Assembly (NCBI RefSeq): GCF_024700885.2 | Contig: NZ_CP117016.1 | Direction: 5' to 3' (one strand) | Length of the DNA: 64,000 nucleotides | DNA from: Escherichia coli | Lineage (GTDB): Bacteria > Pseudomonadota > Gammaproteobacteria > Enterobacterales > Enterobacteriaceae | Shown: one piece after another, positions 9,024 to 33,309 of the stretch | Layout: each line of letters begins with the position of its first letter | Numbering within the stretch: the stretch's first letter is position 1 | The notes under the pieces: generated by a model | Databases searched by the model: none | What the model was told of the DNA's origin: nothing | Seen by the model: the letters and a program-made list of their open reading frames with translations, nothing else | Translations under genes and position numbers: made by a program

Positions 9024-11455
9024 TCCAGCCCCATCGCCCGCAAATGCTCGGCCACTTTCTCGCTCAACGCCTCAACGGAGGCTTCAAGCGCTAGCAACGG
9101 TTCAGCATAACGCTCTTCCAGCTCCTTTACGCGCGACGCCAGTTGCTGGGTAATACGCTCAATCTCCGCCTTGATCCCTGCCTGCAACGTTGCCAGCCAC
9201 TTATCCTGCACTACCAGCGTTTTAATCGCTGCTTCATCCAGCGTGGGATAATGTTTAAACACCGCCCGATCCAGCGCTTCTTGTGCGGCTTTCAGCGCTT
9301 TTTTCGCACTGGCTTCGGCCTTAATTAGCGCCAGGCAGCGGTTCAGCACTGCCAGCTCATCTGGGCCGGCAGTGGTTTTCTTTAACTGTGCTAGACGGGC
9401 ATTCACCAGCTTTTGCGTCACCTTATCTTTATCGTTCTTCGCCTCGGCCAGCAGATCCTCTTCACCTGCCTGCTCCTCGATGAATTCCACTAGCTGACGA
9501 CTGGCTTCTTCACTGCGCTCCTGCGCGCGGTTCAGCGCATCCAGCAGTTCCGGGAAACAGCGAATTTCCACCAGCGAACGGGGCAGCACATCGGCCTTGT
9601 AGCGCCGTTTGGTAAACTCGAAATCGTGCGTTTCTTTCCAGATGTTTTTGCCATCTTTGCCTTTCACCGGCTGAAGCTCGCGGATTTGCGCGGCGGCTTG
9701 CCAGCCATCCTGCATAATCGCATACACATCGTCTTGCATGACATCAGTCCAGTAATCCATCAGGATCTGGTACACGCTGTATTTGTTCAGCAACTCACTG
9801 TTGGCGTACTGCGCCAATAGCATTTCGCTGATATCGTGGATTAGCGCTTTGGGTTTATCACCTTTGCGAATCTCTTCCAGACTTGCCTCTTTCACCCACG
9901 CTTTAAACGGTAGCAGGCTGCGGGTGGCAAAATCCTTAAACTCCTGATGCGCCAGAATGGTCGGTTTCACCTGTTGCGCGTTCACCTGCGCCCGACAGTA
10001 ACCGGGACGGTCGTCAGCAAACAGCACGTTGCGCAGGGCAGGGAATACCCGCCAGTAATCTTGCAAAGCATCCACATCGCGTGCCGGAATACCGCCCTGT
10101 AAGTGCGCGGTCAGATCGTGTAAATCTTCCGGCTCGCCGCTCTCGATATAGCGAGGAATATTCAGGTTGTAATCATTTCCGGCGATCTCGCTGGAGGGCA
10201 CCATCCGGCTGTAGCCAGGTACCGTTCGCTGATGGTTGAACACGTCCACAATGCGGTGAATATCTCGGCTACGCAGGCGGTTCTTGTTGCCATCTTTGAT
10301 AAAGCCCCGGCTGGCGTCGATCATAAAAATGCCTTTGCGGCTGTGGGCGTGCTCTTTATCAATCACAATGATGCACGCCGGGATGCCGGTGCCGTAAAAC
10401 AGGTTGGCTGGCAAACCAATAACGCCTTTGATATAGCCCTGCTTGATTAGATTTTCACGGATATTCGCTTCGGCGTTACCGCGAAACAGTACGCCGTGGG
10501 GCAGGATCACCGCGCCTTTGCCGGTACTTTTCAGGCTTTTAATGATATGCAACAAAAAAGCATAATCGCCGTTTTTTTCCGGCGGAATACCCCAGCCGAA
10601 GCGTTCAAACGGATCTTTTTTCGGCGTCAGCCCGTTGGTCCAGTTTTTATTGGAAAAAGGCGGGTTCGCCACGGCAAAATCGAAGGCTTTCAGTTTGCCG
10701 TTCGCCTCTTTCCACTGCGGATCGCTCAGCGTATTGCCCTGCCAGATTTTCGCGGTGGCATTGTTATGCAGAATCATGTTCATCCGCGCCAGCGCACTGG
10801 TAGCGTTATCCATCTCCTGGCCGAAAATCGACAGTCCGCGCCGGGCTTCATCATTCACTTTCAACAGCAGCGAACCAGAGCCACAGGTTGGGTCATAAAC
10901 CGTTGCATCTTGCGGAGTATCGGGAGTAATACCAATCACCTTCGCCAGAATACGTGACACCTCCGCTGGAGTGTAAAACTGCCCTTTACTCTTACCGGAT
11001 TCGGTTGCGAAGTGACGCATCAGATATTCATAGGCATCGCCCAGCAGATCGTCGCCTTCGGCCCGGTTGCTGGAGAGATTTAACCCTTCAAAGATACCGA
11101 CAAGCTTGCTCAGGCGGTCAATCATTTCCTTGCCTTTGCCGAGCTTATCTTCGTCGTTAAAGTCGGCTTCGTCGATGACGCCCTTCAGGCCGTTCTCTTC
11201 CGCCAGCTTGTGGATGATTTTGTTGATTTTGTCGCCGATCTCTTTGTCATTTTTCAGCGCAACCATATCGTCAAAGCTGGCTCCTTTGGGTATCACGATC
11301 ATCCCGTAAGGATCGCCTTTATACTTATCGGAAACGTACTTCATAAACAGCAGGGTCAGTACATAGTCTTTGTACTGGCTGGCGTCCATCCCGCCACGCA
11401 GTTCGTCGCAGCTTGCCCACAGGGAAGAATAGAGTTCGGTTTTTTTGATAGCCAT
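9017..11455 (-). CDS. hsdM: Type I restriction-modification methyltransferase subunit (HsdM), long form with ~300-aa C-terminal coiled-coil extension
   Basis: 812 aa; HsdM N-terminal domain (MAIKKTELYSSLWASCDELRG...), AdoMet motif I DPTCGSGSLL and N6-adenine motif IV NPPF; C-terminal third is Ala/Glu/Lys/Leu-rich and predicted helical. Confidence 0.85.
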   Translation of the reverse strand: MAIKKTELYSSLWASCDELRGGMDASQYKDYVLTLLFMKYVSDKYKGDPYGMIVIPKGASFDDMVALKNDKEIGDKINKIIHKLAEENGLKGVIDEADFNDEDKLGKGKEMIDRLSKLVGIFEGLNLSSNRAEGDDLLGDAYEYLMRHFATESGKSKGQFYTPAEVSRILAKVIGITPDTPQDATVYDPTCGSGSLLLKVNDEARRGLSIFGQEMDNATSALARMNMILHNNATAKIWQGNTLSDPQWKEANGKLKAFDFAVANPPFSNKNWTNGLTPKKDPFERFGWGIPPEKNGDYAFLLHIIKSLKSTGKGAVILPHGVLFRGNAEANIRENLIKQGYIKGVIGLPANLFYGTGIPACIIVIDKEHAHSRKGIFMIDASRGFIKDGNKNRLRSRDIHRIVDVFNHQRTVPGYSRMVPSSEIAGNDYNLNIPRYIESGEPEDLHDLTAHLQGGIPARDVDALQDYWRVFPALRNVLFADDRPGYCRAQVNAQQVKPTILAHQEFKDFATRSLLPFKAWVKEASLEEIRKGDKPKALIHDISEMLLAQYANSELLNKYSVYQILMDYWTDVMQDDVYAIMQDGWQAAAQIRELQPVKGKDGKNIWKETHDFEFTKRRYKADVLPRSLVEIRCFPELLDALNRAQERSEEASRQLVEFIEEQAGEEDLLAEAKNDKDKVTQKLVNARLAQLKKTTAGPDELAVLNRCLALIKAEASAKKALKAAQEALDRAVFKHYPTLDEAAIKTLVVQDKWLATLQAGIKAEIERITQQLASRVKELEERYAEPLLALEASVEALSEKVAEHLRAMGLEW

Positions 11456-11494
11456 TAAATATCTCGTTTTGCGCGATAATGTGCCGTAAGTCGG

Positions 11495-11800
11495 TTACAG
11501 CAGATCGGTATTCAGACCGGCGGCCTTTAACCGATGGGTTAAGTTACGCATTTTGCTGAATTCGGTACCGAGGCTCTGGTTCAGACCAGTGCCTTCGCAA
11601 AAGGCTTTTGCCGTAATGTGTTCCAGTTTGTCGGCATATTTAATCATTTGCAGGTGCAGCTCGACGGTGTACTGGTTACGAGGCGCACTGGAAAGTGCCT
11701 GCCGGATATGGCGATAAATCTCGTCTTCATTCATATTCATGGCAACCACTGGTATAATAGATAAGTTAGCTAAATTAGCTAAATGTGGTATCAGGTTCAA
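11495..11800 (-). CDS. Hypothetical small protein at the head of the hsd/darTG operon (80-101 aa)
   Basis: ORF immediately upstream of hsdM on the same strand (39-nt spacer); protein-like composition; internal Met (MNMNEDEIYRH...) is an alternative start; no family recognised. Confidence 0.4.
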   Translation of the reverse strand: MNLIPHLANLANLSIIPVVAMNMNEDEIYRHIRQALSSAPRNQYTVELHLQMIKYADKLEHITAKAFCEGTGLNQSLGTEFSKMRNLTHRLKAAGLNTDLL

Positions 11801-12015
11801 GAACTACAGTGGGAGTCGGATTTGACTGCGCGATTTATGCACGTAAATGCCTTGTGGCGGATTAATGGCCGCAGTATCTTCTCCTTCCGCGCCTGCAAAA
11901 TCAGGCGTCGGGATTAGCTTCCTGAAAACCGTTACAGGAGACTTCTCTATGACTACAATCCTTGTCCCTGACTGCGATTTACTCGATCTATTGTTCGTTT
12001 CCTTATAATGTCACT

Positions 12016-12270
12016 ATGGATTTCACCGCCTTGGTCGACAACTGCGCCCACTTCGTCGAATCCCTGATAGAAACCGAGGATCCCGCGCTGTGGCTTACCC
12101 TCTGCGGGCGACATTGTACTGCTGCAACCCACGCCGACCTCATCCCGCCGCATTTTACCGAAAGCCTGCTCAGTGATACTCTCCCCACCATGCCAGATCA
12201 GGTTATTTCTGAACCTGATTCTTGTGCGAATATTGCCTCGTGCGGGCTGTGCATCATCGCCGCTCTTTGA
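12016..12270 (+). CDS. Hypothetical small Cys-containing ORF (84 aa)
   Basis: ATG at 12016 preceded by TATAAT at 12004-12009; product MDFTALVDNCAHFVESL...PDSCANIASCGLCIIAAL; no family recognised; coding status uncertain. Confidence 0.25.
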   Translation: MDFTALVDNCAHFVESLIETEDPALWLTLCGRHCTAATHADLIPPHFTESLLSDTLPTMPDQVISEPDSCANIASCGLCIIAAL

Positions 12271-12732
12271 TAAGAGGCGTCAAAGGTAAGGGGCGTAGCG
12301 TTATTAGTTTGGGCTATACACTTGCGCTACAACTCTTCAAATAGCTATATATCAACAATATTTAGCCATAAACCGTCTACTTCCGTCTCAATTATACTCA
12401 AATTAAGGCATGCGGCATCTTTGTGACACATTTGTTTTTTTGATACAGGTTAGAGTTGACCTGCTCTCCGTTGATTAACTCACATTGTTGTTAACCACGT
12501 CTACTTTTAGCACGACACTGATGCGTTAACTGAGCGAATGGTCTGCTTTGAGCGAGGAACGGACATTACTAACAGCATTCTGTGTGAATCACCAGGGAGC
12601 AGGTCAGCGCCACTACTCTATATAATCGCTAACGATGACAAGTATAATTATATAAGTCTTTGCCCTTAGCTTTTGGATAAAATTGTTGAAGTTTCACGAA
12701 AATAATGATAAACAAAAACAGTAGCAATAATT

Positions 12733-13677
12733 ATGGATTTAATTATGGAATGGAGATTTTTAGGTTCTCTATCAGAGGCCAGGAAATCTGGCTGTAGCGG
12801 AGTTTATCTTATTGTCCATAAAGGACTTTTCAGTCGTGTGGTTTACGTTGGGGTAAGTTGTAATGTAGGTAGAAGGATAACCGAACATTACGACGGTTAT
12901 CTTAGAGGAAATCGAACAATTTACGACGCTGGTCACGACGAAGACGTTTATCGCTTCATGTCAGCTTATAAAATTCATAACCACACAAAATACTATCAAG
13001 CCTTGGCGAATGATTATAAGATATGGGCATCTACCACAATGTATTCTGATTTGCCGAAAAACATGCTAGCAAAAAGCCAAACCTTTGATACTGATTGGCA
13101 GAGCATTGCATTAGAAAAATATATTCCTCAACTGGTAGTATGGGCCCTTCCAATGGCAAAGTACTGTTATTCAAATGCAAGCAGGATTGAAAGTGTAATC
13201 CAATCAAAGCTCATTAAATCTTTTGATTTGAGAGGTTTTTTTAATATAAAGCAATTAAGCATATTGGGTAAAATTGAATATCCCTATATGGAAAAGGTCA
13301 AAGTTTTCATTATTAACACACCTGATTTAGACCCGGCATCCCAGCTTATTTTTAGCAATCTATATAACAAAAAAACTGATAACAACTTCTGTAAAGAGTT
13401 CCGTTCACAATTTAAAAGCGAGATTTTTCAGAGGGAAAGTGAAACTCAGAGAAAGCGAACTATCAGGGAGCATAAGGTATCTCTTTATGAAAATTATGGC
13501 AAGCCTTGGACTTTAAAGGAAATGGAAAAACTTAGAGTCATGCTTGTCGATTTTGATTTGTCCCCGATAGAAATATCTGAGTATCTAGGAAGAGAGCCGC
13601 GCTCTATATCTAAAAAAATAAGCGAAAATGATAAAGTTACTAATTATAAATGGCGAGAGAGCGTCGGCTGGTTGTGA
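12733..13677 (+). CDS. Hypothetical protein with GIY-YIG-like nuclease N-terminus and HTH-like C-terminus, in an AT-rich segment
   Basis: 314 aa; N-terminus GVYLIVHKGLFSRVVYVGVSCNVGRRITEH resembles the GIY...YIG...R...H core of GIY-YIG nucleases such as I-TevI; C-terminal ...WTLKEMEKLRVMLVDFDLSPIEISEYLGREPRSISKKI resembles a helix-turn-helix; flanked by ~400 bp of AT-rich non-coding DNA. Confidence 0.55.
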   Translation: MDLIMEWRFLGSLSEARKSGCSGVYLIVHKGLFSRVVYVGVSCNVGRRITEHYDGYLRGNRTIYDAGHDEDVYRFMSAYKIHNHTKYYQALANDYKIWASTTMYSDLPKNMLAKSQTFDTDWQSIALEKYIPQLVVWALPMAKYCYSNASRIESVIQSKLIKSFDLRGFFNIKQLSILGKIEYPYMEKVKVFIINTPDLDPASQLIFSNLYNKKTDNNFCKEFRSQFKSEIFQRESETQRKRTIREHKVSLYENYGKPWTLKEMEKLRVMLVDFDLSPIEISEYLGREPRSISKKISENDKVTNYKWRESVGWL

Positions 13678-32853: not shown

Positions 32854-33309
32854 ATGAAAAACAAATTGTTATTTATGATGTTAACAATACTGGGTGCGCC
32901 TGGGATTGCAGCCGCAGCAGGTTATGATTTAGCTAATTCAGAATATAACTTCGCGGTAAATGAATTGAGTAAGTCTTCATTTAATCAGGCAGCCATAATT
33001 GGTCAAGCTGGGACTAATAATAGTGCTCAGGTACGGCAGGGAGGCTCAAAACTTTTGGCGGTTGTTGCGCAAGAAGGTAGTAGCAATCGGGCAAAGATTG
33101 ACCAGACAGGAGATTATAACCTTGCATATATTGATCAGGCGGGCAGTGCCAACGATGCCAGTATTTCGCAAGGTGCTTATGGTAATACTGCGATGATTAT
33201 CCAGAAAGGTTCTGGTAATAAAGCAAATATTACACAGTATGGTACTCAAAAAACGGCAATTGTAGTGCAGAGACAGTCGCAAATGGCAATTCGCGTGACA
33301 CAACGTTAA
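32854..33309 (+). CDS. csgB: Minor curlin nucleator CsgB
   Basis: Signal peptide MKNKLLFMMLTILGAPGIAAA followed by Q/N/G-rich repeats. Confidence 0.95.
   Translation: MKNKLLFMMLTILGAPGIAAAAGYDLANSEYNFAVNELSKSSFNQAAIIGQAGTNNSAQVRQGGSKLLAVVAQEGSSNRAKIDQTGDYNLAYIDQAGSANDASISQGAYGNTAMIIQKGSGNKANITQYGTQKTAIVVQRQSQMAIRVTQR

Follow-up and report, generated by a model that had tools for sequence, protein, structure and literature searches.

Our analyses have identified, on the minus strand of a 64,000-nucleotide stretch of Escherichia coli DNA (NCBI RefSeq assembly GCF_024700885.2, contig NZ_CP117016.1; referred to as the window below), a run of seven genes which begins with a small gene (designated rptR here, on grounds given below) and continues with hsdM, hsdS, darT, darG, hsdR, and a gene for a YgjP-like/M48-family metallopeptidase (Table 1). 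A phage defence island of enteropathogenic E. coli (EPEC) E2348/69, which guards against several phages, consists of seven genes (viz. rptR, hsdM, hsdS, darT2, darG2, hsdR, and M48) with rptR in the first position (PMC12255303). The window and EPEC share the order of all seven genes, and for six of these genes the encoded proteins show 96–99.6% identity between the two. The genes downstream of rptR match the published RRDM island at 97.7–99.6% identity, with the sole exception of HsdS (38%). Because of this low identity the restriction specificity should differ from that of EPEC, HsdS having apparently been swapped for a different specificity allele whose recognition sequence is expected to differ.

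The stop codon of rptR (11497-11495) is separated by 39 nt from the ATG of hsdM (11455) on the same strand, in agreement with the preliminary description of this locus. No terminator-like site was found within positions 11300-12800, a segment that includes the gap between the two genes, and the arrangement is consistent with the co-transcription of rptR and hsdM. The spacer between rptR and the gene that follows it was also considered as a conserved cassette junction, a possibility that was rejected because different genera have dissimilar sequences in this spacer. An inverted repeat at 11491-11534 extends across the rptR stop codon (10-nt arms with 90% complementarity, 24-nt loop). As no T-run follows it, this repeat does not constitute an intrinsic terminator, and one of its arms falls in the segment that is deleted in the O157-type allele discussed below.

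Upstream of the rptR promoter, a segment of ~70 nt (11870-11942) is matched at ~93% in ~774 further E. coli genomes which do not carry rptR and in which the match often adjoins a gene for an "ash family protein". This segment probably belongs to the backbone of a host genomic island that received the defence module. Further upstream lies a divergent ORF of 314 aa (12728-13677, plus strand), which matches no Pfam family and appears in RefSeq as a "hypothetical protein"; two copies of the direct repeat TAATTATGGA (12728-12749) overlap its start.

Table 1. Positions of the genes and regulatory features of the island within the window.
Feature	Position	Strand	Characteristics
ORF as listed	11495-11800	-	101 aa from TTG; longest in frame (mechanical ORF list)
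rptR CDS, including stop	11495..11734	-	79-aa form; Pfam HTH_73 and PGAP CDS
Alternative rptR start	in-frame ATG at 11740	-	81 aa
rptR–hsdM spacer	11456..11494	-	39 nt; sequence identical in EPEC
hsdM, type I methyltransferase	9017..11455	-	812 aa; N6_Mtase E 6.7e-104, HsdM_N; 97.7% to EPEC
hsdS, specificity subunit	7683..9023	-	Methylase_S E 2.4e-27; 38% to EPEC HsdS
darT, DNA ADP-ribosyltransferase toxin	7014..7670	-	Pfam DarT E 3.1e-53; 98.6% to EPEC DarT2
darG, macrodomain antitoxin	5950..7029	-	Macro E 2.8e-21; all 355 EPEC DarG residues matched
hsdR, type I restriction subunit	2836..5931	-	HSDR_N, SWI2_SNF2, T1R_D3-like; 99.6% to EPEC
YgjP-like/M48-family metallopeptidase, last island gene	2120..2836	-	PF01863 YgjP-like E 1.3e-61; 99.6% to EPEC
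-35 hexamer TTGAAC	11795..11800	-	Sequence and 14-bp spacing to -10 identical to EPEC
5' -10 box AGCTAATTT (functional in EPEC)	11772..11780	-	Definition of PMC12255303; overlaps repeats DR1/DR2; 14 bp downstream of TTGAAC
RptR operator, three phased units of 9 bp	11757..11783	-	Palindromes TAGCTA, TAGCTA, TATCTA
Operator unit 1, TTTAGCTAA	11783-11775	-	TAGCTA
Operator unit 2, TTTAGCTAA	11774-11766	-	TAGCTA
Operator unit 3, CTTATCTAT	11765-11757	-	TATCTA

Extent and conservation of the small gene

The small ORF at the head of the island is a real gene and not a chance reading frame. Identical DNA is annotated in RefSeq by PGAP as encoding a 79-aa "HTH-like domain-containing protein", and the protein matches the Pfam family PF24718 (HTH_73, "HTH-like domain") over model positions 1-70 of 71 with 97.7 bits (curated cut-off 27 bits) and an E value of 3.5e-28. 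A search of the ORF against NCBIfam gave no meaningful match (best E 0.11). The ORF, whose conservation in related loci had been left open in the preliminary description, has 688 homologues in a set of 5.8 billion proteins, most of them exactly 79 aa long and 73–91% identical, from genera that include Dickeya, Pantoea, Vibrio, Aeromonas, Shewanella, Methylomonas, and Nitrosomonas. When cluster representatives were searched exhaustively, only 110 clusters at 50% identity emerged, and the family is hence a small and tight one. The earlier view of the gene as unassigned does not hold, since it has both a Pfam family and, as described in the next section, a published name.

The coding part of this ORF is 79–81 aa in length and starts at the ATG at 11734 or at that at 11740. 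A product of 101 aa that begins with the TTG at 11800, viz. RptR with an N-terminal extension of 20–22 residues, corresponds to the longest ORF in the frame in the mechanical list, but it has virtually no likelihood of being the true one. The TTG (11800-11798) is itself the opening triplet of the -35 hexamer TTGAAC, and the extension would be encoded by the promoter/operator repeats (residues 1-20 of the ORF), which lie ahead of any position where transcription might plausibly begin, so that the long form cannot be real. Furthermore, the Pfam match starts only at residue 24 of the 101-aa form, the homologues of RptR are almost all 79 aa in length, and the DNA upstream of rptR in other genera is unrelated save for the palindromes. 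The preliminary description, which gave the ORF a length of 80–101 aa, was therefore right as to its existence at 11495-11800 on the minus strand, whereas its upper bound has to be given up.

The evidence regarding the choice between the two ATG codons is divided. The homologues from other genera, the PGAP annotation, and the crystallised construct of EPEC RptR all begin at the second ATG (79 aa). The first ATG, on the other side, is invariant across five aligned E. coli rptR alleles, and in an allele that is common in E. coli (type of strain 675SK2; 675SK2 locus 396-641, compared with the start region at window 11732-11740) the second ATG is replaced by ATA, due to which RptR of this type uses the first ATG (MNINEDE..., 81 aa). 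In PGAP the 675SK2-type allele is annotated as a 79-aa CDS starting from the ATA. The sequence ATGAATATGAAT at the start of RptR in the window resembles a 6-nt tandem duplication.

Relationship to the repressor RptR of EPEC

A profile built from 40 members of the family and searched against the sequences in the PDB matches one solved structure, PDB 9R2Z (E 5e-39), which is that of RptR, the "RMS-proximal transcriptional regulator" of EPEC E2348/69 (WP_000343040.1; Zhang et al., Nucleic Acids Res 2025, PMC12255303). It was through this structure that the link to RptR was made; a full-text literature search for HTH_73/PF24718 retrieved nothing relevant. EPEC RptR is a homodimer, as judged by SEC, of four-helix monomers, and its crystal structure has been determined at 1.3 Å (PMC12255303). 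It represses the promoter of the island ~10-fold in a GFP reporter assay, and its over-expression abolishes phage defence (PMC12255303).

The protein encoded in the window is identical to EPEC RptR at 76 of 79 residues (96.2%), the only differences being N2D, N52S, and H67R, the last of which is located in the recognition/dimerisation helix. All of the residues named as contacting DNA (T57, E58, F59, S60, and K61) are present, and the surrounding segment (...LGTEFSKMRN..., positions 55-64) matches that of EPEC exactly. Within T57-K61, E58 and K61 are invariant and S60 has been tested functionally, the S60G mutant showing weaker binding and loss of function (PMC12255303). The residues V24, E25, L65, R68, L69, A72, and L74, whose roles in the dimer are taken from the crystal structure of EPEC RptR (PMC12255303), are likewise all kept.

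An AlphaFold2 model of the window protein, based on the family alignment (pLDDT 95.3), contains helices at residues 3-15, 22-32, 42-49, and 53-71, i.e. the four-helix fold with a long C-terminal alpha4, and superimposes on 9R2Z with a TM score of 0.94 and an rmsd of 1.0 Å (Foldseek). A fold search of the PDB with this model returned no entry besides 9R2Z at E<1.

We consider it very probable that the small gene is an allele of RptR, the repressor of this E. coli phage-defence island. The biology of RptR at this locus is accordingly already known, having been published together with its structural and functional characterisation. The window and EPEC forms have in common the HTH_73 family, the DNA-contact and dimer residues, the -35 box, the spacer, the functional -10 box, and the predicted fold, and they differ in three substitutions, in the number of operator repeats, and in the HsdS allele. 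The proposal in the preliminary description that the gene is a controller at the head of a restriction-modification (R-M) operon is borne out by this comparison, as the 96%-identical EPEC RptR has been shown to repress the island (PMC12255303) and the window has kept the protein with its key residues as well as the promoter and operator.

Promoter, operator, and kind of regulator

The minus-strand sequence upstream of rptR reads ...gttcTTGAACctgataccacaTTTAGCTAATTTAGCTAACTTATCTATtataccagtggttgccATGaatATG..., and it aligns base-for-base with that of EPEC, save for one 9-bp unit and a few SNPs (EPEC segment 12150-12260 of the fetched locus compared with the operator at 11757-11783). The EPEC promoter consists of TTGAAC, 14 bp, and AGCTAATTT, with RptR sites that overlap the -10 box; reporter expression is abolished when the -35 box is scrambled, and the 5' -10 box is required for promoter activity (PMC12255303). 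Of the two findings that would have spoken against the preliminary description, viz. a lack of conservation and a transcript start downstream of the small ORF, neither applies: the ORF is very highly conserved, and the reporter assays in EPEC place the active promoter upstream of it (PMC12255303). A simple sigma-70 scan did not call the island promoter on the minus strand and reported only other, probably irrelevant sites, since the functional -10 (AGCTAATTT/TAATTT) and the 14-bp spacing are non-canonical. The hexamer TATTAT (11759-11754), which as a -10 element would have given a nearly leaderless mRNA, was considered and dropped in favour of the boxes defined experimentally in EPEC.

The three palindromes of the operator stand in 9-bp phase, at -47/-38/-29 from the ATG at 11734. 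The pattern TAKMTA-N3-TAKMTA has two overlapping matches in the 64-kb window (0.04 expected), and these are found in the operator only. The binding of EPEC RptR to its three direct repeats of 9 bp, TTTAGCTAA, is cooperative (EMSA; KD ~185 nM, Hill coefficient 3.4), the recognition palindrome being the TAGCTA core of the repeat, in which G5/T5 and C6/A6 are tolerated (PMC12255303). Judged by its sequence, the array in the window is the published RptR operator. The exact repeat TTTAGCTAA occurs four times in the window against 0.33 expected; of these copies, those at 8721-8729 (inside hsdS) and 32928-32936 are isolated and have no phased partner. The copy at 32928 was at one stage regarded as a site upstream of a gene that the RefSeq mapping gives as a "bZIP transcription factor"; this was dropped, as the window sequence at that place does not show the start codon of this gene and the mapping is therefore unreliable.

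The operator of the window is one perfect repeat shorter than that of the EPEC promoter which has been tested. EPEC has three perfect TTTAGCTAA units followed by CTTATCCAT, whereas the window has two perfect units followed by CTTATCTAT. The presence of T in place of C in this next unit creates TATCTA, which is one of the four variants predicted to bind RptR (PMC12255303); the 675SK2-type allele shares TATCTA with the window, and EPEC and O157 have TATCCA in this unit. The EPEC promoter segment has 242 matches among E. coli records, 4 of them at >=99% and 238 in the 80–90% band, and among the 80–90% matches listed the alignment is 9 bases shorter, equal to one repeat unit fewer. The promoter allele of the window is found at >=99% in 83 records. 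The EPEC promoter with three perfect repeats is therefore a rare form in E. coli, and the shorter form seen in the window is the common one. Two repeats are enough for full repression by EPEC RptR, and single repeats bind it poorly (PMC12255303). We infer that the allele in the window, with its two perfect repeats and TATCTA, would behave like EPEC RptR in forming a dimer, binding to the repeats, and repressing.

Phased sites of the same kind are also found upstream of rptR in other organisms. Among homologues that are 76–81% identical, those from V. cholerae and Nitrosomonas are preceded by three of them, at -50/-41/-32, and that from Methylomonas by two, at -49/-40; apart from these sites, the DNA upstream is unrelated. 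The TAGCTA array is absent upstream of the distant HTH_73 members that were checked (33–48% identity), and as they lack it these members are uninformative on the locus in the window. They occupy other settings, some of them (33–42% identity) outside R-M contexts; one of these (locus 7001-7243) belongs to a lambdoid prophage, in which it is flanked by a NACHT gene on one side and a pyocin-S-like gene on the other. Upstream of another distant member (locus 759-998) there are three GTTGAAC repeats, which perhaps constitute a different operator.

A small protein which heads an R-M operon and has repeated palindromic DNA just upstream of its gene could also be a classical C protein, i.e. an Xre-type HTH dimer that binds to a C-box and serves as a timed activator/repressor of a nuclease gene, and the authors of the RptR study describe its role as "akin to" that of C proteins (PMC12255303). 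This explanation is nevertheless highly improbable for the gene in the window. Pfam assigns the protein to HTH_73 alone and to no Xre/HTH_3-type family, and the PDB fold search finds RptR and no Xre-type structure at E<1. The operator is composed of 6-bp palindromes in a 9-bp phase, each within a single major groove, and not of a C-box of ~35 bp; the gene precedes the hsdM of a type I system and not a type II nuclease gene; and it is repression alone that has been demonstrated (EPEC; PMC12255303). C proteins such as C.AhdI, C.PvuII, and C.Esp1396I share with RptR their small size, their dimeric binding to DNA, their location in R-M operons, and autoregulation via palindromic sites. However, they possess an Xre-type HTH and a long C-box spanning two major grooves, they act as activators as well as repressors, and they usually precede the nuclease gene, whereas RptR has a fold of its own, reads 6-bp palindromes in one groove, acts in the published assays as a repressor only, and stands before a type I hsdM. 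In the absence of an Xre-type domain and of any structural likeness, and with a different operator and a type I hsdM setting, RptR is a controller by its role but lies outside the C-protein family. The grip of RptR on DNA, with two splayed helices in one groove at a short palindrome, has been likened by its authors to that of bZIP factors and of the leucine-zipper region of TodS (PMC12255303). RptR differs from these in having no extended zipper, and no homology to bZIP proteins was detected in Pfam or in the PDB fold search.

Proposed mode of regulation and its natural variation

Nothing in the sequence contradicts the reading of the small gene as the RptR repressor, and the island would on this reading be regulated as follows. 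The rptR gene would give rise to a four-helix protein of 9 kDa. In the homodimer of this protein, the two long C-terminal alpha4 helices would enter one major groove from opposite sides and read the 6-bp palindrome TAGCTA, with TATCTA, TAGATA, and TATATA tolerated in its place. Several dimers would bind cooperatively at the palindromes, spaced by 9 bp, over the -10 element of the promoter (TTGAAC, 14 bp, AGCTAATTT), which would be the only one upstream of the island, and RNA polymerase would thereby be blocked. The result would be the auto-repression of rptR and, by co-transcription, the repression of hsdM, hsdS, darT, darG, hsdR, and the M48 peptidase gene, which phage infection would lift.

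The gene neighbourhoods of rptR in other organisms agree with the published survey, in which 54 of 117 rptR homologues adjoin type I systems and the others adjoin unknown modules (PMC12255303). In the window, in V. cholerae, and in Methylomonas, rptR is the first gene, on the same strand and directly before a type I R-M module. The V. cholerae gene precedes hsdR-hsdM-hsdS and is located directly downstream of three tyrosine-recombinase genes and a gene for a 158-aa protein, by ssb (locus positions 2679-8240). One V. cholerae relative with the same backbone has kept rptR and ~90 nt of the 5' end of hsdR, which are followed by unrelated cargo (NT5C, resolvase, and SRAP genes), suggesting that the R-M module has been replaced at this spot. 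The Methylomonas gene is followed by an hsdM-hsdS fusion, with SMC-like and Schlafen-like genes embedded before hsdR, and in Nitrosomonas the hsdM downstream of rptR is degraded.

The manner in which infection would relieve the repression bears on a further explanation, according to which RptR is chiefly a sensor or decoy, a trigger switch that is removed upon infection by a phage protein or by the YgjP-like/M48 peptidase, as with CapH/CapP in CBASS. The expression of hsdM in EPEC rises >15-fold on phage infection despite negative autoregulation, which requires the active removal of RptR, and the authors have proposed that proteolysis or sequestration is responsible (PMC12255303). A metallopeptidase gene closes the operon in the window, and this type of gene is often found beside rptR in the published gene-neighbourhood analysis (PMC12255303). 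CapH/CapP and other repressors of defence islands, a likeness drawn from the discussion in the same paper (PMC12255303), resemble RptR in that a repressor is encoded at the edge of the locus and expression is induced by infection or stress; CapH is, however, an HTH protein of another kind, which is paired with a protease of its own, CapP. On the other hand, the rptR loci of V. cholerae and Methylomonas contain no peptidase gene within the readable 8 kb downstream. YgjP-like genes, moreover, accompany many type I systems which do not have rptR. A role of RptR chiefly as such a switch is in our estimation quite unlikely, and it extends the reading of RptR as a repressor rather than replacing it. 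That the island's own M48 peptidase removes RptR on infection is speculation. A broader proposal, in which the M48 peptidase is a CapH/CapP-like de-repressor and in which variation in the operator and in the rptR allele (viz. the number of perfect 9-bp units, which is two or three, the choice of TATCTA or TATCCA in the unit that follows, and rptR without alpha4) tunes the expression of the island between E. coli lineages, is an unlikely one.

The last of these forms of variation is a deletion allele of rptR that occurs in natural strains. Among 248 complete E. coli genomes that hold the 3' end of the locus, 212 hold a 69-nt segment of rptR (window 11521-11589), and 36 records match the junction of its deletion at >=99%. 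About 36 of the 248 genomes with the locus hence carry the deletion, many of them O157:H7. The deletion is of 69 bp, in frame, between two GGTCTGAA direct repeats, and its product is a protein of 56 aa (...FCEGTGLNTDLL) without alpha4, the helix for DNA binding and dimerisation. In O157:H7 the deletion allele (Z1834; 8228-8398 of the fetched locus) is followed by hsdM, hsdS, darT, and darG genes that are annotated as intact, and by an hsdR which carries no defect flag and runs past the end of the fetched stretch. The presence of alleles without alpha4 beside apparently intact defence genes indicates that, at single copy, cells do not strictly need the repression in order to be viable. There is no mention of O157, of pseudogenes, or of the rptR deletion allele in the paper on EPEC RptR (PMC12255303).

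A reading of the DNA made without any tools had in this instance correctly flagged a real regulator, RptR, which is already published as the repressor of exactly this type I R-M/DarTG2 island and, among the Gammaproteobacteria, of many type I systems. What can be added to the published work on RptR is of modest value. Beyond that work (PMC12255303), the present analysis indicates that the EPEC promoter which was studied is a minority allele, the two-repeat form of the window being the usual one in E. coli, and that natural rptR alleles without the DNA-binding helix exist beside apparently intact defence genes. The natural strains that carry these alpha4-less alleles provide ready-made material for asking what purpose repression by RptR serves and how infection lifts it.
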